This document shows, piece after piece, positions 1,062-17,241 of a DNA stretch of 17,241 nucleotides. The DNA lies in contig JASIAM010000264.1 in NCBI GenBank assembly GCA_030041985.1, positions 1 to 17,241 on the forward strand, read 5' to 3'. The notes under the pieces are model-generated. The model was not told where the DNA came from. It saw only the letters and a program-made list of their open reading frames with translations, and made no database searches. Numbering within the stretch: the stretch's first letter is position 1; each line of letters begins with the position of its first letter. Both the position numbers and the translations under genes were made by a program. Source of the DNA: Bryobacteraceae bacterium (GTDB taxonomy: Bacteria > Acidobacteriota > Terriglobia > Bryobacterales > Bryobacteraceae).

Positions 1062-1085
1062 CGGTCACATGACGGTCACTGACCG
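1062..1085. promoter_or_regulatory. Overlapping GGTCA/TGACC inverted-repeat array (candidate operator)
   Basis: Sequence cGGTCAcaTGACGGTCAcTGACCg. It contains GGTCA-ca-TGAC and a perfect GGTCA-c-TGACC palindrome. It lies in the divergent cbiM / SPFH-ATPase intergenic region. Confidence 0.35.
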
Positions 1086-1170
1086 GCATGTAACCTATGA
1101 CAACCCAAACGAACTGCTCCACTTACGTATAAACGAACGTCGTGTCCAGACATCCCGTACTCCAGAGATT

Positions 1171-1384: not shown

Positions 1385-2497
1385 ATGTTTACCGATCAGA
1401 ATAATACCGACTTCCCCAACGAGGAGGAGCCGACCTTCCGGAAAGGGCTGCGCATCGGCGTAGCGGCCCTCGTTTTGGCTGCGGCGGTCGCTGCTGCTTG
1501 CATCGTAATGGTGCCGGCAGGTCAGGCTGAAGTCATTACGCGTTTCGGTAATCCCATTCGCGTCATTACGGAGCCGGGACTGGCATGGAAATGGCCGGCA
1601 CCGGTGGAAAGCGCGATTCCGATCGACTTACGTCTTCTTACCACGGCCACCGGGTTAGAGGATGTCGGCACGCGCGACGGTTTACGGGTTCTCGTGCAGG
1701 CCTATGTGGCTTGGCAGGTGCCGAGTAACCCTCAAGAGATCCGGCAGTTCCTGCGATCCGTGCGGAATCAGCCGAACGAGGCCGCCCGGCAGTTGCGCAG
1801 CTACGTCAATGCCGATCTGCACGTCATCTCGAGTAATTTTAACCTCGCCGATCTCGTGAATGTAGATCCGCAGAAGGTGCGTCTGAATGCCTTCGAGGAC
1901 CAGGTGCGTGCGAGGATCGCTCCCCGAATGCAGCAGGTGTACGGGATCGCTGTTCGGCAGATTGGGATCGAGCGGATGACATTGCCGGACGAAACGCTGG
2001 CGGCCACCGTGGCGCGTATGAAAGCCGATCGGGAAACCGTTGCCGCACAGCTAACGGCAGAGGGCCTTGAGAAAGCCGCTGCCATTCGCGCTGATGCCGA
2101 AAAAGAAGCGCGCGAAGTGGTGGCCGAGGCAAGCGAGAAAGCAGCGCGTACGGAGGCGGACGCTCAGCAGGCGGCGGCTCGCACCTACCAGCGCGCGTAT
2201 CAGAGTGACCCGAATCTCTACGAAACGCTGCGCTCGCTGGATACGATCAATCAGATCGTCAGCCACAGCACAAACCTTATTATGCGTACTGATGCGGCCC
2301 CATTCCGAATGCTGGTCGACGGGCCGCCGGGCGTAAAGAACGCCACTGCCAACGCCGCGTCTGTTGCCCAGCCGGCGTCCCCCGCGGCGAACTCGGCTAA
2401 TCCAACGGAGACGCCGGCTCCTGCAAAGGCTTCCCAAAAGCCGCCAGTTCCGAAGAAAAAAGACGCGAGTATCCCGGAGGTCGCCGGAAGGCAATGA
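1385..2497 (+). CDS. HflC-like SPFH/band-7 domain membrane protein
   Basis: 370 aa with one N-terminal TM helix (GLRIGVAALVLAAAVAAACIV). SPFH core begins VPAGQAEVITRFGNP...EPGLAWKWP. C-terminal region YGIAVRQIGIERMTLPDETLAATVARMKADRETVA...YQSDPNLYETLRSLDT aligns by eye with the HflC coiled-coil and C-terminal motifs. Stop overlaps the next start (ATGA at 2494-2497). Confidence 0.8.
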   Translation: MFTDQNNTDFPNEEEPTFRKGLRIGVAALVLAAAVAAACIVMVPAGQAEVITRFGNPIRVITEPGLAWKWPAPVESAIPIDLRLLTTATGLEDVGTRDGLRVLVQAYVAWQVPSNPQEIRQFLRSVRNQPNEAARQLRSYVNADLHVISSNFNLADLVNVDPQKVRLNAFEDQVRARIAPRMQQVYGIAVRQIGIERMTLPDETLAATVARMKADRETVAAQLTAEGLEKAAAIRADAEKEAREVVAEASEKAARTEADAQQAAARTYQRAYQSDPNLYETLRSLDTINQIVSHSTNLIMRTDAAPFRMLVDGPPGVKNATANAASVAQPASPAANSANPTETPAPAKASQKPPVPKKKDASIPEVAGRQ

Positions 2498-3606
2498 TAG
2501 GCGCGCCCGATTATTCGCCGGCCGGCGTGGACGAAGAGCCTCGCCGTGTTCTGGTTGGGCCGCAGCCCGGTCCGATCGCACAGTCGGTCGTGCTTGGTTT
2601 TCGGGCCTTGTATGTGGCCACAGTGCTGCTTGCGCTCTTCTGGGTCACAAGCGGTGTGCGCGAAATCGCATCCGACAGCCAAGTTGTCGTGCGCCGGTTC
2701 GGTCGCATCGTGCGTGCGCAGCAGACTGGTCTGCTCGTGGCGTGGCCGCGTCCTATCGAGCAGGTCCAGGTCTTGCCCGGACCGCAGCGGCAATTGACTC
2801 AAGACGTATCCGTGCTGCTCGCGCCCAGCGGAAAGTACCAGGAGGTGGTGTGGGGCGTCAACTCGAACACCAGAGCGTCGCGTACAGCCGCACCTCAGCA
2901 TGCCGAAGCATACCTGACAGGCGACGGCAACGTCGTACTCATCACGGCAAGCCTGATCTACCGGATCAACGATCCGATCGCGTACGCGCTCGAAGAGGAG
3001 CACGTCGGCCCCGCGCTCGATCGGCTTTTCCGTGCCACCGCAGTGCGGATCGCGGCCGGTAGAAACCTCAATGATTTTCTGGTCGTGCAGACCAATGCCG
3101 ATCAATCTCGCAATGGGCAAGCTCCCATCGCCCGGCGTAGTGAAGTCCGTGAGTCATCGCTTAGAGAGATAAACGATCGCCTACACGCTCTCGAGGCCGC
3201 CGGCGCCGGGCTGGGAGTGGAGATTGAGCAGATTAACCTGACGCCGTCATTGGCGCCCGCTGCCAAGGCCGCCTTTGATCAGGTGATTGTGGCGGATCAG
3301 ACTGCCGAGCGCGGCATGGCCAATGCGCGCACCGATGCCGAACGCCGCCGCCAGCAGGCCAACACCGAGGCCGAACAATTGGTCAGCGCCGCGGAGGCGA
3401 CAGCGAAGGAGACCGTAACCAAAGCTTCGGTCGATACGGCAAGCATCCTGGCACTCGTGCACGACGAGAGGACGTTTCAGAGCCGGGACAGTTTGTTATT
3501 GCGGGAATACCGTGCTCGAGTGGCGAGTATAATGAGCACCGGGCGAGTAACGTTAGTCGACCCAAAGAGCGGCGCGCGCGTCGTATTACCAGGAAAACAA
3601 CCATGA
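2494..3606 (+). CDS. HflK-like SPFH/band-7 domain membrane protein
   Basis: 370 aa with an N-terminal TM helix (ALYVATVLLALFWV). SPFH core is VVVRRFGRIVRAQQTGLLVAWPRPIEQV. HflK-like segments: YLTGDGNVVLITASLIYRINDPIAYAL and GVEIEQINLTPSLAPAAKAAFDQVIVADQTAERGMANARTDAERRRQQANTEAEQ. Translationally coupled on both sides (ATGA overlaps at 2494 and 3603). Confidence 0.8.
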   Translation: MIGAPDYSPAGVDEEPRRVLVGPQPGPIAQSVVLGFRALYVATVLLALFWVTSGVREIASDSQVVVRRFGRIVRAQQTGLLVAWPRPIEQVQVLPGPQRQLTQDVSVLLAPSGKYQEVVWGVNSNTRASRTAAPQHAEAYLTGDGNVVLITASLIYRINDPIAYALEEEHVGPALDRLFRATAVRIAAGRNLNDFLVVQTNADQSRNGQAPIARRSEVRESSLREINDRLHALEAAGAGLGVEIEQINLTPSLAPAAKAAFDQVIVADQTAERGMANARTDAERRRQQANTEAEQLVSAAEATAKETVTKASVDTASILALVHDERTFQSRDSLLLREYRARVASIMSTGRVTLVDPKSGARVVLPGKQP

Positions 3607-3651
3607 GTGCCACACCAGTTACCAGGGAAACAACCATGAGTGCCACAGCCA
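3586..3651 (+). repeat. 33-bp tandem direct duplication spanning the ATPase RBS/start and the upstream-gene stop
   Basis: TTACCAGGAAAACAACCATGAGTGCCACA (3586-3614) is repeated as TTACCAGGGAAACAACCATGAGTGCCACA (3619-3647). There is 1 mismatch in 29 nt, and the period of 33 nt is in frame. Confidence 0.85.
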
Positions 3652-5666
3652 GAATCGATCCGTCCTGCGCTCCTGGCGGTGGGACCTGTTTCGCGACGGC
3701 TGATGCCGTCACTTCGACTCTCCAGATTGACGCGACTCTCGGGACCGACCGATCAGGGCAGTTGCTGAATCGGGCCGAGCGTTTTGTGCTCGGTCTCCGA
3801 CTCACGCTGGCGCTCGCGGCGCTGTGTCTGGTCGCGGTTGCCAGTGGCGTGTATTTCTTCTTGCCGGCTGAGCGCGGGGTCGCCGATCTGGTGGCCGGTG
3901 TAGGCGCTGCTCTGGTTGCCGTTCCGGTATTCGTCGAGGCTTGGGCAAGCTTGAAGCATCCAAGCCTCGACGGCATTAGCGAGCGGTTGGTAGCTTTGGC
4001 GCTCATCGCCGCTTGGGCTACCGGCGATCTCATGACTGCTGCCATCCTGCCGATCATCATGACGATCGGCCATATATTGGAAGAGCGAAGCATGCTGGGT
4101 TCGCATGAGGCCATTAGCGCCCTGACCCGCTTGACCGAGGCTGATGTCCGGCGGCGACGGCCTGGTGGCGGCGTAGAAGTGGTGTCCGGCACGAATCTGC
4201 GGGTCGGCGACCTTATTGAATTGCGTGCCGGAGAGCGCGTGCCGGCCGACGGAATTGTGCGTCAGGGTGCCTCGACTCTTGACCTCGCCTCCTTAACTGG
4301 TGAATCGGTGCCGGTCGAAGTTGGCGAGGGTAACGAGGCACCGGCTGGCGCGATGAATCTGGATGGTCTGCTGCTATTGGAAATCATCCGTACCGGTGAA
4401 GAGAGCACCGTCGGACGGATCATTACTTTGATGCGGGACGCCGAGAGTTCCAAGCCACCCCTCACGCGGATGCTTGACAAATACGCTGGTCAGTACATGG
4501 CACTGGTTCTGCTCGTGGCCGGGGGCACATGGCTGATCAGCGGAAGCACGCCGGCGATGCTCGCCGTGCTCGTCGCGTCCTGCCCGTGCGCCCTAGTGCT
4601 GGCTGCGCCGGCAACCGCCGTCGCCGCTATCGCCGTGGCCGCGCGCCACGGCATCCTGATCAAGGGATCTGGCTTCCTGGAAAACCTGGCCGACATTTCC
4701 TCGGTGATCTTCGACAAAACCGGCACCCTGACCACGGGCAATCTGCATCTGGCGCGCGTCGAGCCGACCGAGGGTGCCGATCCAACTGTGCTCAAGCGTC
4801 TTGGTGCAAGTCTCGGTGCCGCAAGCAACCATCCGCTCAGTCGCGCCGCCGCCGCTGCGGTACCGAAAGAGGAGCGCCTGGGCCTCGAAGACGCTCGCGA
4901 GCTGGGCGGCTTTGGCGTTACCGGCATGTACGAGGGAGAAATCGTCGTGATGGGGCGCGCAGACTGGTTCGAGCGTCTCGGCATCGCGGTGCCCGCGCCG
5001 CCGGCGCACGTCGGGCCGATTGCCGGCGTCAGCCGGAACGGAAAGTTCTTAGGCTGGCTACTGTTTTACGATCAGTTGCGCAGCAGCGCTTCCGAAGCGG
5101 TGCAGGACCTGAAAGGGCTCGGCATCGAGCACATGGTGCTGTTGACCGGAGACCGGGCTGCAGTGGCCCATGAGGTGGCAGCCGAAATCGGTGTGGACGA
5201 AGTCTGGGCCGAGATGCTACCCGAGCAGAAGATGGATCGCGTTATGCGCGAGATCAAATCCGGCCACCGGCCCATGGTGGTCGGGGATGGCATCAACGAC
5301 ACGTTGGCGCTTCGCGCCGGGGCCGTCGGTGTGGCGATGGGCACGCAAGGATCTGATATCGCCTTGGCGTCAGCCGACCTCGCGTTGATGACCAACGATC
5401 TGCGGCGCCTCGGCACCTGCATTCGGCTCAGCCGCCGCTGCCGCCGGACGATCGCCGTCAACATCGTGATGGGCCTGGGATTCACGTTTGGCCTCGTGGC
5501 GCTGGCGGGCTTCAACGTTCTGGGCGCCTCAGCGCCGATCATCGCGGCGCTCCTGCACAACGTGAGTACGTTCCTGGGAATTGGCAACTCCGGTCGCTTG
5601 CTGCTCTTCGACGAGACGGATGCGGTTGCAGCAGCGACGGTCTCACAGACGCCAGTGACGACGTGA
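3603..5666 (+). CDS. P1B-type heavy-metal-translocating P-type ATPase, short form lacking an N-terminal HMA domain
   Basis: 687 aa. CPC motif in SCPCALVLAAP (P1B signature). Phosphorylation motif DKTGTLT. HP motif SNHPLS. Hinge motif GDGINDTLAL. Followed by MGTQGSDIALASADLALMTNDL. No GMxCxxC metal-binding domain at the N-terminus. An alternative in-frame start at 3636 is created by the tandem duplication. Confidence 0.9.
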   Translation: MSATPVTRETTMSATARIDPSCAPGGGTCFATADAVTSTLQIDATLGTDRSGQLLNRAERFVLGLRLTLALAALCLVAVASGVYFFLPAERGVADLVAGVGAALVAVPVFVEAWASLKHPSLDGISERLVALALIAAWATGDLMTAAILPIIMTIGHILEERSMLGSHEAISALTRLTEADVRRRRPGGGVEVVSGTNLRVGDLIELRAGERVPADGIVRQGASTLDLASLTGESVPVEVGEGNEAPAGAMNLDGLLLLEIIRTGEESTVGRIITLMRDAESSKPPLTRMLDKYAGQYMALVLLVAGGTWLISGSTPAMLAVLVASCPCALVLAAPATAVAAIAVAARHGILIKGSGFLENLADISSVIFDKTGTLTTGNLHLARVEPTEGADPTVLKRLGASLGAASNHPLSRAAAAAVPKEERLGLEDARELGGFGVTGMYEGEIVVMGRADWFERLGIAVPAPPAHVGPIAGVSRNGKFLGWLLFYDQLRSSASEAVQDLKGLGIEHMVLLTGDRAAVAHEVAAEIGVDEVWAEMLPEQKMDRVMREIKSGHRPMVVGDGINDTLALRAGAVGVAMGTQGSDIALASADLALMTNDLRRLGTCIRLSRRCRRTIAVNIVMGLGFTFGLVALAGFNVLGASAPIIAALLHNVSTFLGIGNSGRLLLFDETDAVAAATVSQTPVTT

Positions 5667-5795: not shown

Positions 5796-6497
5796 ATGGA
5801 TAGCATCCTCGAAGTAGGCCACCTCTCGGTGCACTTTGGCCGACGCCATGTGCTGCAGGACTTGAGCTTCAACGTCGAACGCGGAACCTCACTCGCCATT
5901 CTCGGGCCGAACGGCGCTGGCAAGACGGTTCTGTTCCGGTCGCTGATTGGTGCCACGCCCTATGACGGCACAGTACTCTGGGCCGCAGGCACGCGTATCG
6001 GCTATGTGCCTCAGAAACTGGATCTCGAACGTGACATCCCGATCACGGGACTCGATTTCTTAACGGCACGGACCGCGCTCGCGCATGGCATACGGACCGA
6101 TGTCTCGCGTGTGCTGGCGCTCGTCGGCATTCCCCCTGACGTGGCGAATCAGCCGATCGGCGTGCTCTCGGGCGGTCAGTTTCAGCGGCTGCTACTCGCC
6201 TTCGCTCTGGTCGGCGAGCCGAACGCGCTGCTGCTCGACGAGCCAACGGCGGGGGTGGACGAGCCAGGGCAGGAACAGATCAACGAGCTTGTCAGCGTTC
6301 TTCAGCAAAATCACGCGCTGACCGTCCTGTTCATCTCGCACGAGCTCACAGTGGTGAGCCGCTACGCCACCAACGTGCTCTGCCTCAGCCGTGGCGTATC
6401 GTGCTTTGGTCCGCCACGCACCATTCTCACGCCGGATCTCCTGCGTGATATGTACAGCACTGACATGCACTTCCACGTTCACGAGCACGACCGATGA
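5796..6497 (+). CDS. znuC: ZnuC/MntB-like metal ABC transporter ATP-binding protein
   Basis: 233 aa. Walker A GPNGAGKT, signature LSGGQFQRLLLAFAL, Walker B LLLDEP. His-rich C-terminal tail HFHVHEHD, typical of zinc/manganese-type ABC ATPases. Confidence 0.8.
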   Translation: MDSILEVGHLSVHFGRRHVLQDLSFNVERGTSLAILGPNGAGKTVLFRSLIGATPYDGTVLWAAGTRIGYVPQKLDLERDIPITGLDFLTARTALAHGIRTDVSRVLALVGIPPDVANQPIGVLSGGQFQRLLLAFALVGEPNALLLDEPTAGVDEPGQEQINELVSVLQQNHALTVLFISHELTVVSRYATNVLCLSRGVSCFGPPRTILTPDLLRDMYSTDMHFHVHEHDR

Positions 6498-7252
6498 CCG
6501 CTGACGCGCTGGCGCTCGCGGTGGCAATGGCCGTGGCCTCCGGCCTGATCGGCTGTTTTGCCGTGATGCGGCGGATGTCGCTCGCGGCCGACCCACTGTC
6601 GCACGTCGCGCTGCCCGGCATCGGCGTCGCCCTGGCGCTGCGGATCCATCCCATCTTCGGCGCCGTGGCGTTGCTGTTTTTCGGCGCGCTCCTGGTATGG
6701 GCCCTCGAGCAACGGACCCGAGCCGCCACCGAAACGATGATCGGGATTGTCTTCTCCGCGGCGCTGGCCGTAGGAAGCATGATGACCTCTGGCGAGAATC
6801 TGATCGAAGCGCTGTTCGGCGCCAGCGGCCCGCCCAGCACATCGGAATTGATCTTCGGCCTCGCCGGCGCATTCGCCGTAATCGTCTTCATCGTTACCCA
6901 ACGGGACAGCCTGATTGTGATGCTCGTCTCGCCGGAAGTGGCGCGCACGACTGGGATTAACGTTGGCCGGCTGAATCTGCTGTATCTTGAGGCCTTTGCA
7001 CTGACGATTGGGCTGGGGTTGCGCTACCTGGGCGTTTTGTTGATGGGGGCCCTGATTATCGTGCCCGCAGCCACCGCGAAGGGGATGGCACGCAATCTCA
7101 CGGGCATGCTCTACATGGCGGCCGGCATCGCTGTACTGGCCACCGTAGTCGGCACGTGGGCAGCGGTTTGGCTGCACCGGGCCAGCGGCCCGCTAATCGT
7201 GATGACAGCGACCGGCGTCTTCCTGCTGAGCCTTACGCGAAAACCCGCCTAA
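6494..7252 (+). CDS. znuB: ZnuB-like ABC-3 family metal transporter permease
   Basis: 252 aa, very hydrophobic multi-TM. ATGA overlap with the znuC stop (6494-6497). Size and composition fit the ZnuB/MntC/TroC permease family. Confidence 0.75.
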   Translation: MTADALALAVAMAVASGLIGCFAVMRRMSLAADPLSHVALPGIGVALALRIHPIFGAVALLFFGALLVWALEQRTRAATETMIGIVFSAALAVGSMMTSGENLIEALFGASGPPSTSELIFGLAGAFAVIVFIVTQRDSLIVMLVSPEVARTTGINVGRLNLLYLEAFALTIGLGLRYLGVLLMGALIIVPAATAKGMARNLTGMLYMAAGIAVLATVVGTWAAVWLHRASGPLIVMTATGVFLLSLTRKPA

Positions 7253-7269
7253 TTGATCGTCAGCTAGGT

Positions 7270-7310
7270 TCTATTCGATATCCCTTCCGCATACCGAGGG
7301 ATTGTGGTAG
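7270..7310 (+). terminator. Candidate stem-loop terminator after znuB
   Basis: ATCCCT (7270-7275) pairs with AGGGAT (7287-7292) around an 11-nt loop. It is followed by TGTGGTAGCATTTTAT, 18 nt after the znuB stop. Confidence 0.3.
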
Positions 7311-7384
7311 CATTTTATAGCTAGATATTTCGCCCCGATAAGCGAATACTAAGTCATTGGTATTGACGAGGTCTCCCGTAGTTC

Positions 7385-9370
7385 ATGTGGCTAATATTCC
7401 TAATCGTTTTTACGTGGTTCTGCGTACTCATCTATGACGTATTTTCGATAGGTGATCAACCGCCCGAATCGAAAGAATTTGTATTTCCCCGCGCCCATCG
7501 CCTGACGCGTGGACTGACATTGCTGTACGCCAGTGCGGTGATAGCAGTTGTGGTGTGGCTGACCCTCGGATCCCTGGGAATGAGCGCGCCGCGCGAGTGG
7601 GTTGAGGGTGGCTGGGGGGCCATCGCGTTGCCGACGCTCCTTGTGGCGCTCACTGGCTCGGTCGCCACACTAGCCCTGACCGGCGCGCGATTCCGGTACG
7701 CATCGGGTGGGGAGAGTCAGAATACCGAGACGCAACCGGGGCCGTTGCTCAAGTGGATGGTGAATCCCGGATTCGCCGCCCGGCAGGGACAAGCCATCAT
7801 TGTGACGACTGGTGCGGTGCTCGTATGGATCGCGGAGCGGTGGCTGTGGCCGGTGGAGACATCCCCAAACGCAGAAGTGGCGGCCAACGTCGGGATCGCC
7901 GTCGGTGCTGCGCTCGCGCTCGCCTTCGCATCGCTCATGGCGGAGCGCCTTGTGAACGCCTTCCCTGAGCCTCAGTTACCCGAGGCCCCGACGATTCGGC
8001 GTCTGTTGCTTTTTACAACTCTGATGCTCGTTGCGGGGGCATGTTTGGAAATTGTACATGGTGCGGGTGTCACGTGGCTTCGCTGGCTCGTCTGCGCCTT
8101 GGCTTGCCTCCCGGGGTTGATCGTGTTCGAGCTCATCCTGCGTGCGCTGGGCCGGCTCTTCCTCCCAGCACCGCTACCCGCCGCCGCCACCGCCGTCACG
8201 GATAGCTTGGTCGCTGCCTTGGTCACCAGGAGACCTCGAGCGCCTGGCACCATCCTTCGCACCCATCTCGGATTGGATTTTTCAAGGAGTTGGGCCCTTG
8301 CGTTCTTGAGCAAGGCGCTCCTACCGGCCATCTTCGGGACCGGTTTGCTGTGTTGGGGATTGAGCGGCGTGAAGCTGATCGATCTGGGGCAGCGCGACAT
8401 TTACGAACGATTTGGCGCTCCGGTCGCCGTGCTCGGACCCGGCCTCCACATGGTGCTGCCGTGGCCGATCGGACGGTTGCGTCCCGTCGAATACGGCACC
8501 ATTCACTCCGTGGCGATCGGCGTCGACCAGGCGGAACCGGACAAAGCGATGTCGGCCGATGCGGAGGCCCCGGCCCCGCTCGCCCTGAATCGACTCTGGG
8601 AAAGCTCACATCCGGGGCAGGCCTACTATTTAGTGCCGAGCGCGGGTATTGGTTCCGAAAGCGTCCAGGAAGTCGCCACTGAGATCAGTGTGCTGTACCG
8701 CGTCGGCTTGAGCGACGAGGCAGCTTTGAACTCGGTGTACAGGGTCGCCGATCCCGAATCGCTGATCCGAGACGAGGCTGGCCGCCTAGTACTTCGTTTT
8801 TTTAACTCGCGGACGCTCGAGGCGGTGATCGGGGCGGACCGCGAGAACATGGCGGGCGCGTTGCGCGATCAACTGGCGGCTGATATCGATTCGCATCAGG
8901 CGGGTATCGAAATCGTCTCTGTGCTCATCGAGGAAATTCATCCTCCGGCTGGTGCGGCCGCGGCGTACCACGCGGTTCAGGCGGCGCAGATCAATTCGAC
9001 GGCAAGTATCTTCGAAGAACAGGCACGGGCCGAACTCAAGGCCGGCACCGCGCAGCAGGAGGCACACCAGATGACGACCGCTGCGGATGCGAAAGCTGAC
9101 GAGACACGGCGTGTCGCCGATGCCGCAGCGTATCGCTTCGATGCGGATCGGCGCGCAGCGGCCGCCGGCGGGAAGGCCTTCGTGCTGGAGCGCTTCTACA
9201 GCAATCTGGATGCGGCCCTGTCGAAGGTTCCGGTGACGATCATCGATCACCGAATCAACTCGGCAGACGGCCCTATTCTCGATCTGCGTGAGGCAGCCGG
9301 AAGCATCGGATCTTCTAAGCCTGCACCCGTTCCGCCCTTGTTGCCCCCGGGGATTATGGACAAGCACTAG
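7385..9370 (+). CDS. Polytopic membrane domain fused to a C-terminal HflK-like SPFH/band-7 domain
   Basis: 661 aa. The N-terminal ~300 residues contain many hydrophobic helices. The SPFH core starts VKLIDLGQRDIYERFGAPVAVLGPGLHMVLPWPIGRLRPVEY. HflK-like motifs IEIVSVLIEEIHPPAGAAAAYHAVQAAQ and RFYSNLDAALSKVPVTIID follow. The first ~70 nt are unusually AT-rich, so the true start may be downstream. Confidence 0.65.
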   Translation: MWLIFLIVFTWFCVLIYDVFSIGDQPPESKEFVFPRAHRLTRGLTLLYASAVIAVVVWLTLGSLGMSAPREWVEGGWGAIALPTLLVALTGSVATLALTGARFRYASGGESQNTETQPGPLLKWMVNPGFAARQGQAIIVTTGAVLVWIAERWLWPVETSPNAEVAANVGIAVGAALALAFASLMAERLVNAFPEPQLPEAPTIRRLLLFTTLMLVAGACLEIVHGAGVTWLRWLVCALACLPGLIVFELILRALGRLFLPAPLPAAATAVTDSLVAALVTRRPRAPGTILRTHLGLDFSRSWALAFLSKALLPAIFGTGLLCWGLSGVKLIDLGQRDIYERFGAPVAVLGPGLHMVLPWPIGRLRPVEYGTIHSVAIGVDQAEPDKAMSADAEAPAPLALNRLWESSHPGQAYYLVPSAGIGSESVQEVATEISVLYRVGLSDEAALNSVYRVADPESLIRDEAGRLVLRFFNSRTLEAVIGADRENMAGALRDQLAADIDSHQAGIEIVSVLIEEIHPPAGAAAAYHAVQAAQINSTASIFEEQARAELKAGTAQQEAHQMTTAADAKADETRRVADAAAYRFDADRRAAAAGGKAFVLERFYSNLDAALSKVPVTIIDHRINSADGPILDLREAAGSIGSSKPAPVPPLLPPGIMDKH

Positions 9371-9719: not shown

Positions 9720-10235
9720 ATGCACATTCTCAATTGGATTGAACAGACCTCATTCAGTACCTGGGTGCGGGAATCTCCTTCGCTTTTCGCATACCCTACA
9801 ATTCTCTTCTTTCACACCGTGGGCCTGGCATTTCTGGTCGGTCCAAGCATTGCAATTGTGGCAAGGGTGCTCGGGCTGGCTCCGAAACTACCGTTACGGC
9901 CTTTTGAGAAGTTCTATCGCATCATGTGGTTCGGATTTTGGATCAATGTGGTTTCCGGCATTGTGCTCCTCGCCGCGGACGCTACCACCAAGCTGATCAA
10001 CTGGGATTTCTACGTAAAGCTGGGGTTCATCTCAATTGCCGTAGTGGTTCTCAAACGGCTACGAAAACGCCTATTTCATAACCCACAATTGAAGGGGGAT
10101 TGGTCCATTCCGGAGAACGCGAAACCTCTGGGAATCGCGTTGCTCCTATGTTGGGCGGGCGCCATTGCGGCGGGAAGGTTTATGGCCTACCTCGGCCCTG
10201 TGTCCGGCGCGCCCGGACTAAACAATCGATTCTAA
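9720..10235 (+). CDS. Hypothetical 4-TM membrane protein (paralog A)
   Basis: 171 aa. Strong SD GGAGGGG 3-9 nt upstream of the ATG. Four predicted TM helices, with a conserved His in TM1 (FFHTVGLAFLVG). Paralogous to the next ORF. Confidence 0.6.
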   Translation: MHILNWIEQTSFSTWVRESPSLFAYPTILFFHTVGLAFLVGPSIAIVARVLGLAPKLPLRPFEKFYRIMWFGFWINVVSGIVLLAADATTKLINWDFYVKLGFISIAVVVLKRLRKRLFHNPQLKGDWSIPENAKPLGIALLLCWAGAIAAGRFMAYLGPVSGAPGLNNRF

Positions 10236-10265: not shown

Positions 10266-10766
10266 ATGTATTTTGTCGATTTATTTTCCGATTTGCTCAA
10301 CCGAATCGGGCTTCACGGAGTCGTGGCCCACTATGCCTGGATTGTTCCGACGTGCCAAACCATTCATTTCTTTGGACTAGCCCTCCTGATGGGCTTCGTC
10401 GCCCTTTTCGACCTGCGCATGCTGGGGTTCGGAAAGGGACTCTCGATGTTGCATTTGAACCGTTTTCTTCCCTTGGCTGCCATTGGATTCGCCATAAACA
10501 TGATTACCGGCACAATCCTGTATGCGGGAGACCCCTCGATGTTCGGCCACAACGTTGCGTTCGGATTCAAGATGCTCTTCATTTTGCTGGCCGGGATCAA
10601 TGTGTTGGTGTTTTACATTAGCGGCACCGCCCGGACGGTCGAAGCTTTGGGGCCTGGGGATGACGCGCCGCTTGCCGCCCGGGTCATCGGAGGCACTTCG
10701 CTATTCCTGTGGGTGGGAGTCATGTTCTGGGGCCGCATGCTGCCTTTCATTGGCAATGCATTTTAG
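10266..10766 (+). CDS. Hypothetical 4-TM membrane protein (paralog B)
   Basis: 166 aa. SD AAGGAG upstream. Same helix layout as 9720-10235, with corresponding motifs (IHFFGLALLMG vs FFHTVGLAFLVG; AINMITGTILYAGD vs WINVVSGIVLLAAD). Confidence 0.6.
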   Translation: MYFVDLFSDLLNRIGLHGVVAHYAWIVPTCQTIHFFGLALLMGFVALFDLRMLGFGKGLSMLHLNRFLPLAAIGFAINMITGTILYAGDPSMFGHNVAFGFKMLFILLAGINVLVFYISGTARTVEALGPGDDAPLAARVIGGTSLFLWVGVMFWGRMLPFIGNAF

Positions 10767-10796: not shown

Positions 10797-11192
10797 GTGG
10801 TTTGCGAACCCGAGATGTCAAAACACAAACTGAAAGCGTTCCGGCAAATTCTCATAGATAAGAAAGCTGAGATCGAGAATCGCTTGCGTCATCTTGAAGC
10901 AATCGCCAGCCAAACGAGCGCCGACGAACTCGACCGGATGCAATATTCGGCAGAACAGGCCGTCGCGGTTCACCACTTGAATTTCGAATCGGACACGCTC
11001 GTTGAAGTCATGGAGGCGCTGCAACGGGTCGATGAAGGGGATTTTGGCAAATGCGTTCGCTGTATGGAACAAATTAGCCGGAAACGGCTAATGGCCGTTC
11101 CTTGGACTCGTTTCTGCATCCAGTGCAGGACTTTGGGAACGTTAGAAAACTTGGGGAGGCGCCGGTCTCGCAAAGGGCCACTCCGGCATTGA
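10797..11192 (+). CDS. DksA/TraR-family C4-type zinc-finger protein
   Basis: C-terminal CVRCMEQISRKRLMAVPWTRFCIQC (CxxC-x17-CxxC), preceded by a predicted coiled-coil region. This is the DksA/TraR layout. An alternative start at the ATG at 10815 (MSKHKLKAF) is plausible. Confidence 0.65.
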   Translation: MVCEPEMSKHKLKAFRQILIDKKAEIENRLRHLEAIASQTSADELDRMQYSAEQAVAVHHLNFESDTLVEVMEALQRVDEGDFGKCVRCMEQISRKRLMAVPWTRFCIQCRTLGTLENLGRRRSRKGPLRH

Positions 11193-17148: not shown

Positions 17149-17241
17149 CTCCCGAAGAGGACAATTTAAGGCGAGTAACCGGCATGTGACCGCGCCGTAA
17201 CCACAAATGTTGTTTGTTTTCAGGCACTCAGAACACGCTTG

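Follow-up and report, generated by a model that had tools for sequence, protein, structure and literature searches.

In Pseudomonas aeruginosa, three genes of the HflC/K family lie beside the gene for the metal pump HmtA and are induced by zinc depletion (PMC4542158, PMC11761036, PMC9431628). Induction of the PA2439-PA2435 region reached 5.6- to 14-fold in a znuA mutant (PMC4542158 Table 2), a response to zinc depletion is also seen at the protein level (PMC11761036), and Zur binds the PA2439 promoter by EMSA (PMC8531726); in one study, however, zinc did not repress hmtA, whose mRNA stayed at a low level (PMC8531726). HmtA itself is described as a Zn/Cu importer (PMC8456098; also PMC4542158). 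Published work treats the SPFH genes as FtsH modulators, and our literature search found no paper testing a complex of SPFH proteins with the pump. Inward Zn/Cu transport by HmtA, together with metal accumulation on HmtA expression, was reportedly seen by Lewinson in 2009 in a heterologous study. The import direction of HmtA depends on that one study, and other P1B ATPases are exporters.

The E. coli HflK and HflC proteins (PDB 7vhp, 7wi3) are two paralogues that form a complex with FtsH; each is anchored in the membrane at its N-terminus, and its SPFH domain, in the periplasm, is followed by a long helical tail. SPFH-NfeD operons (QmcA/YbbJ, YuaG/YuaF) encode an SPFH protein and a membrane partner in tight linkage. 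The mycobacterial protein PacL1 shares an operon with the exporter CtpC, scaffolds it into membrane platforms and is needed for abundance and clustering of the pump (PMC9374683); PacL is a small DUF1490 protein rather than an SPFH protein, its foci are flotillin-independent, and PacL1-CtpC answers zinc excess and exports metal.

Here we describe a locus within a 17,241-nt stretch of DNA (the window) from an uncultured Acidobacteriota-like host, with closest relatives in the Bryobacteraceae (78%). It holds an Acidobacteriota version of a module of four genes that is conserved and moves horizontally, encoding three SPFH proteins (SPFH3, SPFH1 and SPFH2) and an HmtA-type ATPase.

SPFH genes of the module and their known relatives

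SPFH1 (1385-2497; 370 aa), SPFH2 (2494-3606; 370 aa) and the ATPase gene (3603-5666; 687 aa) are contiguous on the plus strand in the ORF list of the window and are coupled by ATGA stop/start overlaps, read directly at 2494-2497 and 3603-3606, as a first-pass annotation of this DNA had stated. Purine-rich stretches resembling ribosome-binding sites lie 5' of the junctions (GGAGG/GGAAGG before 2494, AGGAAA before 3603). A second in-frame ATG is available to the ATPase at 3636; we prefer the start at 3603 because the overlap is conserved.

The same annotation had called the first two products HflC-like and HflK-like SPFH proteins with one N-terminal transmembrane helix each, and its proposed profile searches, when run, recovered the Band_7, E1-E2_ATPase and Hydrolase domains. 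SPFH1, the HflC-like protein, consists of a single N-terminal transmembrane helix (residues 24-42), an SPFH domain (Pfam Band_7, E=2.7e-24) and a helical tail rich in Ala, Glu and Arg; its best NCBIfam model is hflC (TIGR01932, 106 bits against a cutoff of 134.4) and its nearest solved structure E. coli HflC (7vhp_G, 9e-18). Its homologues number 1733 at E<=0.001, with 67-94% identity among the 120 matches listed. The HflK-like SPFH2 likewise has a single N-terminal hydrophobic helix (31-49) and a Band_7 match (E=1.3e-9), with hflK as its best model (TIGR01933, 69 bits; cutoff 159.4) and E. coli HflK as its nearest solved relative (7vhp_E, 4e-7).

The earlier description of an SPFH pair was right in that two SPFH genes precede the ATPase, but the conserved unit has three paralogues, and the third had been missed. 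SPFH3 (7385-9370, plus strand; 661 aa) begins with a membrane domain of about eight helices (residues 1-330), followed by an HflK-like SPFH domain (Band_7, 1.1e-16, residues 332-548; TIGR01933, 60 bits, again below 159.4) and a coiled coil. AF2 modelled the N-terminal domain with pLDDT 85-96 and the SPFH part poorly. This N-terminal domain has no Pfam or NfeD match and no significant fold match in the PDB, was seen in 161 representative clusters only, and the listed matches covering most of it are mostly proteins of 600-700 aa; the eight-helix domain is specific to the SPFH3 family. In most genomes the module begins with SPFH3, which in the window is displaced behind znuCB-like genes, 1.7 kb downstream of the ATPase.

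All three proteins carry Band_7 with an N-terminal membrane anchor and align with the C-terminal halves of HflC/HflK, and positive-inside analysis predicts a periplasmic SPFH domain in each, as in HflK/C. The module thus repeats the anchor, periplasmic domain and helical tail of the E. coli proteins, but with one HflC-like and two HflK-like members, whilst E. coli has two paralogues, neither with an eight-helix domain; its invariant genetic partner is the P1B ATPase instead of FtsH. None of the three reached the TIGR01932/TIGR01933 equivalog cutoffs for canonical HflC/HflK. An SPFH-NfeD operon was rejected: no scanned ORF of the window matched NfeD, and the additional membrane domain of the module is fused to SPFH3 and is without a Pfam or PDB match. 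The likeness to PacL1-CtpC, an anchored Glu/Ala-rich helical scaffold or chaperone encoded with a P1B ATPase, is functional only (a logic that we also propose for the module), PacL having no homology to the window proteins; an effluxosome of that type was discarded as the genes 5' of the ATPase encode Band_7, not DUF1490.

In blastp comparisons with the P. aeruginosa locus (L165, which we take to be the PA2439-PA2434 region), SPFH3 was the orthologue of PA2439 (40% identity), SPFH1 of PA2438 (57%), SPFH2 of PA2437 (37%) and the ATPase of PA2435 (56%), and each window protein was the best window match of its counterpart. At the level of protein sequence, the window module is the counterpart of PA2439-PA2438-PA2437-(PA2436)-PA2435. 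The loci have in common the four protein families, the 4-nt overlap of SPFH1 and SPFH2 and a link to zinc-uptake genes. They differ in that P. aeruginosa has a 144-aa PA2436-like ORF between SPFH2 and the ATPase, absent from the window, and the overlap at that junction is therefore not universal; the window also has neither a PA2434/DUF4946 gene nor the His-rich stretch of the HmtA N-terminus, and its SPFH3 is not first but lies 3' of znuCB with its own promoter-like block. The flanks of L165 hold glyA-, sdaA- and gcvT-type genes and the Pfam family 'PA14_33160', an order that we take to match PAO1. The view that the gene set was not a described system is not supported by this comparison, as the set is that of the hmtA locus, listed as induced by zinc depletion and with a Zur-bound promoter. 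What is new is the Acidobacteriota member; the operon family is known, catalogued in P. aeruginosa and mechanistically unstudied.

The P1B-type ATPase

The third coupled gene had been annotated as a heavy-metal P1B ATPase with CPC, DKTGTLT, HP and GDGIND motifs, an identification borne out by the motifs and by TIGR01525 (heavy-metal P1B ATPase, 498 bits; cutoff 346). The protein has the E1-E2 (Pfam E1-E2_ATPase, 3e-47) and HAD (Hydrolase, 3e-19) domains, and all the P1B-type features are present: CPx in TM4 (CPC, 327-329), DKTGT (DKTGTLT, 371-377), HP (410-411) and GDGxND (GDGIND, 561-566). A Pfam scan found no HMA metal-binding domain on it. Its match to the P. aeruginosa HmtA-like protein spans 589 aa, and ACPCAL, LHNxST and GHxLEERS are common to both.

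The nearest solved structures are sCoaT (7qbz, 3e-78) and ZntA (4umv, 2e-74), and the core architecture is like that of P1B-4 (sCoaT/CzcP-type) and P1B-2 (ZntA-type) pumps, which gave the top structural-sequence matches. As in sCoaT, the HMA domain is absent, and the conserved His of the last TM aligns with the histidine of the sCoaT HEGxT motif. Assignment to ZntA (P1B-2) was rejected on the NF033775 equivalog (287 bits against a cutoff of 1240), and assignment to CoaT (P1B-4) on alignment to sCoaT, where the window protein reads CPC in place of SPC and HNVST in place of HEGST. An alignment of the window protein to 75 ATPases linked to the module gave a family signature of (A/S)CPCAL in TM4, LHN(V/L)(S/G)T in the last TM, GHxLEERS and GDG(I/L)ND(S/T/V)LA; module members thus carry CPC in TM4 where P1B-4 pumps have SPC, and HN(V/L)(S/G)T in place of HEGxT. 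Because this motif combination is kept across the aligned members, it argues for a distinct P1B subgroup of module-linked ATPases.

Linkage of the module and its zinc context

Survey of the SPFH side covered the best 80 of 551 tblastn-confirmed genome matches to SPFH1, which come from Acidobacteriota as well as from Alpha-, Beta- and Gammaproteobacteria. The ATPase was found in 74/74 of these loci with enough downstream DNA, and the order SPFH3-SPFH1-SPFH2-ATPase, on a single strand, in every surveyed genome locus with enough flank. From the ATPase side, 80 ATPase-selected metagenome loci, counted only where upstream DNA sufficed, had SPFH2 upstream in 65/65, SPFH1 in 51/51 and SPFH3 in 36/36. 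The neighbourhood survey that the first-pass annotation had called for thus gives a strict SPFH-P1B ATPase adjacency in both directions, one that is not unique to this genome. Among the genome loci (80, independent of one another), 59/77 keep the -4 overlap at SPFH1/SPFH2 and 62/74 keep it at SPFH2/ATPase (about 80%), and these conserved overlaps argue for co-translation of the module genes in fixed proportions. The module is also carried whole by a conjugative plasmid of Klebsiella, where it adjoins a Tn3 transposase. Gene linkage by itself cannot separate a client from a co-regulated neighbour.

Between the ATPase and SPFH3, and absent from the earlier annotation, lie genes for a ZnuC-like ABC ATPase (the ATP-binding subunit of a metal importer; 5796-6497, plus strand; ABC_tran 1.7e-22) and a ZnuB-like ABC-3 permease (6494-7252, plus strand; ABC-3 2.6e-48), the start of the second overlapping the stop of the first (ATGA). 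Their best NCBIfam models are ZnuC (158 bits, below the cutoff of 306) and ZnuB (119 bits, below 284). Orthologues of the ZnuC-like gene with 84-90% identity flank the module in four Acidobacteriota-type loci (L003, L004, L085 and L132), ZnuA-, ZnuB- and ZnuC-like neighbours recur across several lineages, and other neighbours of uptake type, a TonB-dependent receptor and CbiM, occur in the window or in several lineages.

Two promoter-like blocks precede the SPFH genes on the plus strand. Block 1 (1167-1202), 5' of SPFH1, has an extended -10 element, TG-n-TAGAAT (1172-1180), followed by ATTTCGCCC; block 2 (7300-7335), 5' of SPFH3, reads TG-n-TAGCAT and then ATTTCGCCC, and is a diverged copy of block 1. 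They are identical at 27/36 bases, a value reached in 0/200 shuffles (maximum 24), and an identical TTGTGCTAGAAT stands 5' of SPFH3 in a Bryobacteraceae locus (L003, at 7847); from these features we infer a promoter role for both. A Zur-box-like GTTATATCGTAAC lies 5' of SPFH3 and is conserved in 14/14 Pseudomonas loci, whereas neither the window nor any of the non-Pseudomonas loci examined showed a recognisable Zur box. Zinc regulation of the window module is therefore something we infer from orthology and from context (the znuCB-like genes and the TonB-dependent receptor) only.

Possible roles of the SPFH assembly

The reading that best joins these observations, to which we give a probability of a little over one half, is that the three SPFH paralogues form an HflK/C-like assembly that corrals the ATPase in zinc-limited metal acquisition. 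Under zinc limitation, SPFH1, SPFH2 and SPFH3 would come together, by way of their SPFH domains and coiled coils on the periplasmic side, in a ring or cage like that of HflK/C; this would confine the ATPase to a patch of membrane and stabilise or gate it, or control its turnover, and the pump would act together with the ZnuBC-like importer encoded next to it. A zinc-free FtsH paralogue would probably be an additional occupant in some lineages. A more specific version, in which the three proteins build an HflK/C-like cage in the periplasm that is dedicated to a P-type ion pump as its resident client and not to a protease, joined in some lineages by a zinc-free, proteolytically dead FtsH paralogue, is put forward tentatively, its odds falling clearly short of even.

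A rather unlikely alternative, though one with several points behind it, is that the SPFH proteins are zinc-starvation-specific modulators of FtsH-type AAA+ proteases (an alternative HflK/C for the housekeeping or the zinc-free FtsH), with the ATPase either carried along in the operon or degraded by FtsH as a substrate, and not housed in the cage. FtsH, itself a zinc metalloprotease, controls the stability of the P-type ATPase MgtA, a precedent for this reading. HflC and HflK are also the nearest of the solved homologues, the genes are called FtsH modulators both by PGAP and in work on P. aeruginosa (PMC9431628), and PMC13220708 cites papers on MgtA and MgtS. Moreover, the window has no ftsH or NfeD gene among its scanned ORFs, as the first-pass annotation had said, but the absence of an FtsH link does not extend to the family: at least eight related genome loci (L003, L004, L013, L019, L022, L026, L028 and L031) have an FtsH paralogue beside the module with intact Walker motifs and with REGGR in place of HEXXH, thus lacking the zinc ligands, and four metagenome loci (L095, L109, L128 and L140) have FtsH-like matches of 68-72% identity, their motif unread. 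Against this, ftsH is missing from the surroundings of the module in most loci (the window, 14/14 Pseudomonas and the Klebsiella plasmid copy included), the translationally coupled ATPase is present in every locus, the SPFH scores are under the HflC/HflK equivalog cutoffs, and Pseudomonas retains a separate canonical hflKC.

To our knowledge, all structurally characterised P1B ATPases are exporters, the nearest ones, sCoaT and ZntA, included. This favours the proposal of the first-pass annotation that the SPFH proteins scaffold a platform for a heavy-metal efflux or detoxification pump, much as PacL1 scaffolds the exporter CtpC (PMC9374683), and in Paraburkholderia the module adjoins genes for copper handling, PCu(A)C and DUF2946. 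We nevertheless consider it distinctly improbable: the P. aeruginosa locus is induced by zinc depletion, not excess, and its promoter is Zur-bound (PMC4542158, PMC8531726, PMC11761036), reviews describe HmtA as an importer (PMC8456098), the genes around the module, in the window as in several lineages, encode uptake components, and the scanned ORFs include no MerR/ArsR-type efflux regulator. Given the zinc-starvation induction and Zur binding of the P. aeruginosa locus, the pump probably serves metal acquisition in zinc limitation, not efflux.

Some P1B ATPases are dedicated to metallation, such as the FixI/CopA2 type, which serves cbb3 oxidase. Export of zinc (or copper) into an SPFH-enclosed periplasmic space, to supply enzymes of the periplasm or envelope with metal during zinc scarcity, would be a role in metal allocation as opposed to uptake or detoxification; it would reconcile P1B exporter chemistry with starvation-induced expression and suits SPFH domains predicted to face the periplasm. 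This reading has very little probability, being pure conjecture, with no candidate periplasmic zinc enzyme conserved beside the module in the neighbour survey, and at odds with the metal accumulation on HmtA expression that is reported according to PMC8456098.

Should the reading of a dedicated cage around the pump be true, this would be the first bacterial SPFH assembly specialised for a transporter, one that would enable a pump for uptake or allocation under zinc starvation to work, whether by stabilising it, by gating access to its periplasmic face or by timing its removal once zinc returns, to name examples.

The module genes and their setting in the window

A mechanical ORF listing gave three consecutive genes on the forward strand, SPFH1 (1385–2497), SPFH2 (2494–3606) and the ATPase (3603–5666), and since ATGA is read at each junction (GGCA-ATGA-TAGG between SPFH1 and SPFH2, AACC-ATGA-GTGC between SPFH2 and the ATPase, both preceded by purine-rich stretches) both are 4-nt start/stop overlaps, as the first-pass annotation had described. 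Profile searches agreed with its assignment of the first two ORFs to the SPFH family and of the third to the P1B ATPases: SPFH1 and SPFH2 matched Band_7/SPFH in Pfam (2.7e-24 and 1.3e-9 respectively), with hflC and hflK as top NCBIfam models, both scoring under the equivalog cutoffs, and the third protein matched E1-E2_ATPase and Hydrolase (Pfam) and the heavy-metal P1B ATPase model TIGR01525 (498 bits; NCBIfam). All four ATPase motifs reported earlier (CPC, DKTGTLT, HP and GDGIND) were found, Pfam detected no HMA domain on this protein, and topology prediction placed one N-terminal hydrophobic helix in each of SPFH1 and SPFH2, in keeping with the single transmembrane helix ascribed to each. 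A short direct repeat, AAACAACCATGAGTGC, at 3596–3614 and 3629–3647 duplicates the ATPase start region, which gives rise to MSAT...TTMSAT and to another in-frame ATG, at 3636; relatives keep the upstream ATG that overlaps the SPFH2 stop, not the one at 3636.

The description of these genes as an SPFH pair was incomplete, for although the two coupled genes exist, a third SPFH gene on the same strand (SPFH3, 661 aa, 7385–9370, Band_7 at residues 332–548) had been missed. SPFH3 follows a znuC-like ABC ATPase gene (5796–6497) and a znuB-like ABC-3 permease gene (6494–7252), both identified by Pfam and NCBIfam, which lie downstream of the ATPase on the same strand and share an ATGA junction; this pair had also been overlooked. 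A cbiM(NQO) cluster lies upstream in divergent orientation. Between SPFH3 and a DksA-like gene (10797–11192) are two adjacent small membrane proteins, polytopic and apparently paralogous (171 aa, 9720–10235; 166 aa, 10266–10766), one with a weak DUF6644 match. The DksA-like protein has an intact C4 zinc finger, and its identification as a zinc-free DksA2 was rejected, both CxxC pairs being retained. Pfam further identified an OprB-family porin and a TonB-dependent-receptor-like barrel of 1201 aa. The window is a complete metagenome contig of 17,241 bp, and its nearest named relatives in the SPFH1 genome scan were Bryobacteraceae and Acidiferrales MAGs.

By sequence, the nearest solved relatives are E. 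coli HflC for SPFH1 (9e-18) and HflK for both SPFH2 (4e-7) and the C-terminal half of SPFH3 (3e-4). Ahead of its Band_7 domain SPFH3 carries an N-terminal region of 330 residues (7385–8374, residues 1–330) with no Pfam match, and an AF2 model of SPFH3 shows residues 1–290 as a confident bundle of approximately eight membrane helices (pLDDT 85–96), the SPFH part being modelled poorly. Foldseek comparison of the model with the PDB returned no significant fold match (best E 0.09). A weak likeness to the transmembrane domain of ZnT1/YiiP was dropped because the conserved His/Asp metal site is absent, and an NfeD fusion was rejected for want of Pfam support. A search of 1.84 billion representative proteins found the N-domain in only 161 clusters, and the listed matches that cover most of the domain are mostly 600–700 aa long, which suggests an SPFH3-like architecture for its homologues. 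Charge distribution suggests that SPFH3 is N-out with eight helices and that SPFH1 and SPFH2 are N-in with one, which would put each of the three SPFH domains on the periplasmic side, the arrangement in HflK/C.

SPFH3 is usually the first gene of the module, and in the window it sits behind znuCB; the related locus L004, which has no SPFH3 before SPFH1, possibly shows the same displacement. A 36-nt block with an extended −10-like element occurs at 1167–1202 upstream of SPFH1 and again at 7300–7335 upstream of SPFH3, the two being identical at 27/36 positions, a level reached by none of 200 shuffles. The blocks read TGnTAGAAT and TGnTAGCAT respectively, followed by ATTTCGCCC, and their TTGTGCTAGAAT also precedes SPFH3 in the Bryobacteraceae locus L003. 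These predicted promoters suggest that the promoter region was duplicated and that co-expression of the split module is maintained in this way. Rfam gave no match at E ≤ 1 anywhere in the window, and hence no riboswitch in its long 5′ region. Scans for sigma-70 promoters and for terminators returned sites no more numerous than in shuffles, and proteobacterial Zur box patterns were unmatched in the window and in non-Pseudomonas loci. The element GTNACCGNCATGTNACC occurs three times in the window (three matches in 0/200 shuffles), as a tandem pair in the cbiM/SPFH1 intergenic region (1063–1079(−) and 1079–1095(+)) and as a third copy 27 nt ahead of the gene for the TonB-dependent receptor (17175–17191(+)). 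It was a candidate operator for an unnamed regulator, and was set aside because L003–L005, the related Acidobacteriota loci, lack it.

Linkage of the four genes across genomes

SPFH1 has 1733 homologues at E ≤ 0.001, with 67–94% identity among the 120 listed. Scanning an SPFH1 alignment against one genome per species gave 551 confirmed matches, the best 80 of which were analysed by calling ORFs in each locus and comparing them with the window proteins. These 80 came from Acidobacteriota, Steroidobacteraceae and other gammaproteobacterial MAGs, Acetobacteraceae, Xanthobacteraceae and Hyphomonadaceae, Paraburkholderia and Burkholderia, and 14 Pseudomonas species, and among them every locus with enough flank carried SPFH3, SPFH1, SPFH2 and the ATPase in that order on one strand. 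The −4 overlap was present at SPFH1/SPFH2 in 59/77 loci and at SPFH2/ATPase in 62/74. All-against-all clustering of the ORFs in these loci left the module's four genes as the only ones universally shared, and neighbouring-ORF clustering revealed no further universally conserved neighbour, many apparent clusters being antisense shadow ORFs. Sampling was then turned to the ATPase, which removes ascertainment via the SPFH gene: scanning metagenomes with aligned ATPases from the module gave 80 loci (56–85% identity), and wherever there was room SPFH2 (65/65 loci, one by manual inspection), SPFH1 (51/51) and SPFH3 (36/36) lay upstream of the ATPase. The adjacency seen by the first-pass annotation is thus kept in surveys from both directions and is not unique to this genome, and within the sampled range the partnership between SPFH proteins and ATPase is obligate both ways.

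Identities of the four module proteins to those of the window co-vary (r = 0.92–0.96), and cross-phylum identities of 65–78% suggest that the module was transferred whole, with which a plasmid copy is consistent. This copy, on Klebsiella aerogenes pYD-K10_1 (NZ_CP142847.1), a conjugative plasmid (MOBF/MPF_F), is a complete four-gene module (67441–73167) that lies 2.4 kb from a Tn3-family transposase and is annotated ‘protease modulator HflK / HflC / HflK / cation-translocating P-type ATPase’; it is direct evidence that the module is mobile horizontally.

Further neighbours were seen in particular lineages. In 14/14 Pseudomonas species (L051, L059–L082; e.g. L068:14068–15255 and L081:15277–16743) the ATPase is followed, in the same orientation, by a cyclopropane-fatty-acid-synthase-like gene, which is adjoined by a cardiolipin-synthase-like (PLD) gene on the opposite strand; the proximity of these lipid-modifying enzymes may have a meaning or may only reflect synteny within the lineage. 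On the Paraburkholderia sprentiae chromid pl1WSM5005 (L084, 72156–80076) the module is just downstream of DUF2946, PCu(A)C copper-chaperone and metal ABC permease genes, a context that hints at copper instead of zinc as the relevant metal in some lineages.

The P. aeruginosa hmtA locus and the FtsH paralogue

Orthology was tested directly by using a Pseudomonas SPFH1 query to retrieve a P. aeruginosa protein (P0323) and its contig (L165, GCA_015735305.1). The module there reads Band_7 (666 aa), Band_7 (341 aa), Band_7 (346 aa), a 144-aa ORF and a P-type ATPase (660 aa), with glyA-, sdaA- and gcvT-type genes and two ORFs without a Pfam match on one flank, and a DUF4946 gene and the Pfam family ‘PA14_33160’ beyond the ATPase. 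These flanking genes match what we take to be the PAO1 gene order around PA2439–PA2434, and the contig is read as that region. Its proteins are 40% (SPFH3), 57% (SPFH1), 37% (SPFH2) and 56% (ATPase) identical to those of the window, and the two ATPases have ACPCAL, LHNxST, GHxLEERS and GDGINDSLAL in common. The P. aeruginosa locus differs in that a PA2436-like ORF with a signal-peptide-like N-terminus (the 144-aa ORF, L165:9857–10291) is inserted between SPFH2 and the ATPase, breaking the overlap, and the N-terminus of HmtA is His-rich whilst that of the window ATPase is not. In this isolate the phosphorylation motif of the ATPase (L165:10320–12302) is DKTGPLT, not DKTGTLT; strain variation or an error in sequencing could account for the difference. 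A conserved GTTATATCGTAAC element lies directly upstream of SPFH3 in 14/14 Pseudomonas loci.

The nearest solved structures to the window ATPase are sCoaT (P1B-4) and ZntA (P1B-2), and it falls under both the ZntA and CopA equivalog cutoffs of NCBIfam. Module ATPases combine a TM4 CPC with HN(V/L)(S/G)T, where P1B-4 enzymes have HEGxT at the latter site, and this combination without an N-terminal HMA is kept across the aligned module-linked ATPases, which on these sequence features are best treated as a distinct HmtA-type subgroup.

The P. aeruginosa genes have been catalogued together, PA2435 (HmtA, ‘P-type ATPase importer’) being listed with PA2437 (‘HflC family’), PA2438 (‘HflC’) and PA2439 (‘HflK family’), all four 5.6- to 14-fold up in a znuA mutant, with mention of a weak Zur site (PMC4542158). 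Zinc depletion also raises PA2435, PA2438 and PA2439 protein (proteomics; PMC11761036), although hmtA transcript data conflict with this zinc-starvation picture (PMC8531726).

The window contains no FtsH gene, as the first-pass annotation had stated, yet an FtsH paralogue adjoins the module in related loci. In L003 it lies immediately upstream of SPFH3 (5836–7713(+)), with FtsH_ext, AAA and Peptidase_M41 domains and R-E-G-G-R in place of the zinc-binding HEXXH. This variant, which occurs in Acidobacteriota, Steroidobacteraceae-type and Hyphomonadaceae loci, is 67–74% identical across phyla, with Walker A/B intact, and recurs near the module at L013:13959–15791(−), L019:17494–19323(−), L022:9032–10921(−), L026:15891–17720, L028:5415–7430(−) and L031:7936–9759. 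A further copy (L004:14288–15078, 84% identical) is truncated ahead of the motif region, metagenome loci L095, L109, L128 and L140 hold FtsH-like matches by identity alone (68–72%, motif unread), and in a further three loci an FtsH with the normal HEGGH lies a few kb off. From its motif the REGGR paralogue may be an FtsH that binds no zinc, has lost protease activity and is co-expressed with a zinc-starvation module, and this accessory strengthens both the HflK/C analogy and the zinc-sparing theme. It also bears on the possibility that the SPFH trio acts on FtsH-type proteases with the pump as passenger or substrate, which we consider unlikely though the most serious of the alternatives: the paralogue is absent from most loci and so is not an obligate partner, that partner being the ATPase.

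Function and significance of the module

The best-supported reading is of a zinc-limitation module in which an HflK/C-like heteromer scaffolds, stabilises or regulates an HmtA-type pump. SPFH1, SPFH2 and SPFH3 would co-assemble, the ATPase would be the client of that assembly, and the pump would act in metal acquisition alongside ZnuBC-like transport. Orthology, linkage and coupling of the four genes are established by the loci themselves; zinc-starvation induction, Zur binding and the reported import are taken from the literature, for P. aeruginosa only. By analogy with PacL1/CtpC (PMC9374683) the module might instead form an efflux platform, closer to the first-pass annotation's cage around an efflux pump, which appears improbable beside the zinc-starvation induction and the znuCB-like neighbours. 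That the pump exports into a vault for periplasmic metallation, a role that the predicted periplasmic position of the SPFH domains would fit, seems more doubtful still.

The linkage also recasts HmtA, whose disputed transport direction and weak phenotypes merit re-examination with the whole module, because the sole evidence cited for P1B ‘import’ reportedly comes from expression in E. coli, apparently without its three constant SPFH partners. The claim that the system was undescribed holds in part: the cluster is already catalogued and routinely annotated and so is not categorically new, but a full-text literature search found no paper treating SPFH proteins and a P-type ATPase as one machine. 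The window extends this known gene cluster by a member from Acidobacteriota whose layout is rearranged, and the analysis contributes the strict two-way cross-phylum linkage, the set of three paralogues, one of them with a polytopic domain specific to the family, and the zinc-free FtsH accessory. That accessory, devoid of zinc ligands and situated beside the module, is a hint that quality control of membrane proteins is remodelled so as to spare zinc. [quoted passage not shown] Across two or more phyla, and on a conjugative plasmid as well, the constant genetic partner of the three SPFH paralogues, coupled to them in translation, is a pump, and the module, genetically tractable because it is present in P. 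aeruginosa, is a clean candidate for a second kind of SPFH client.
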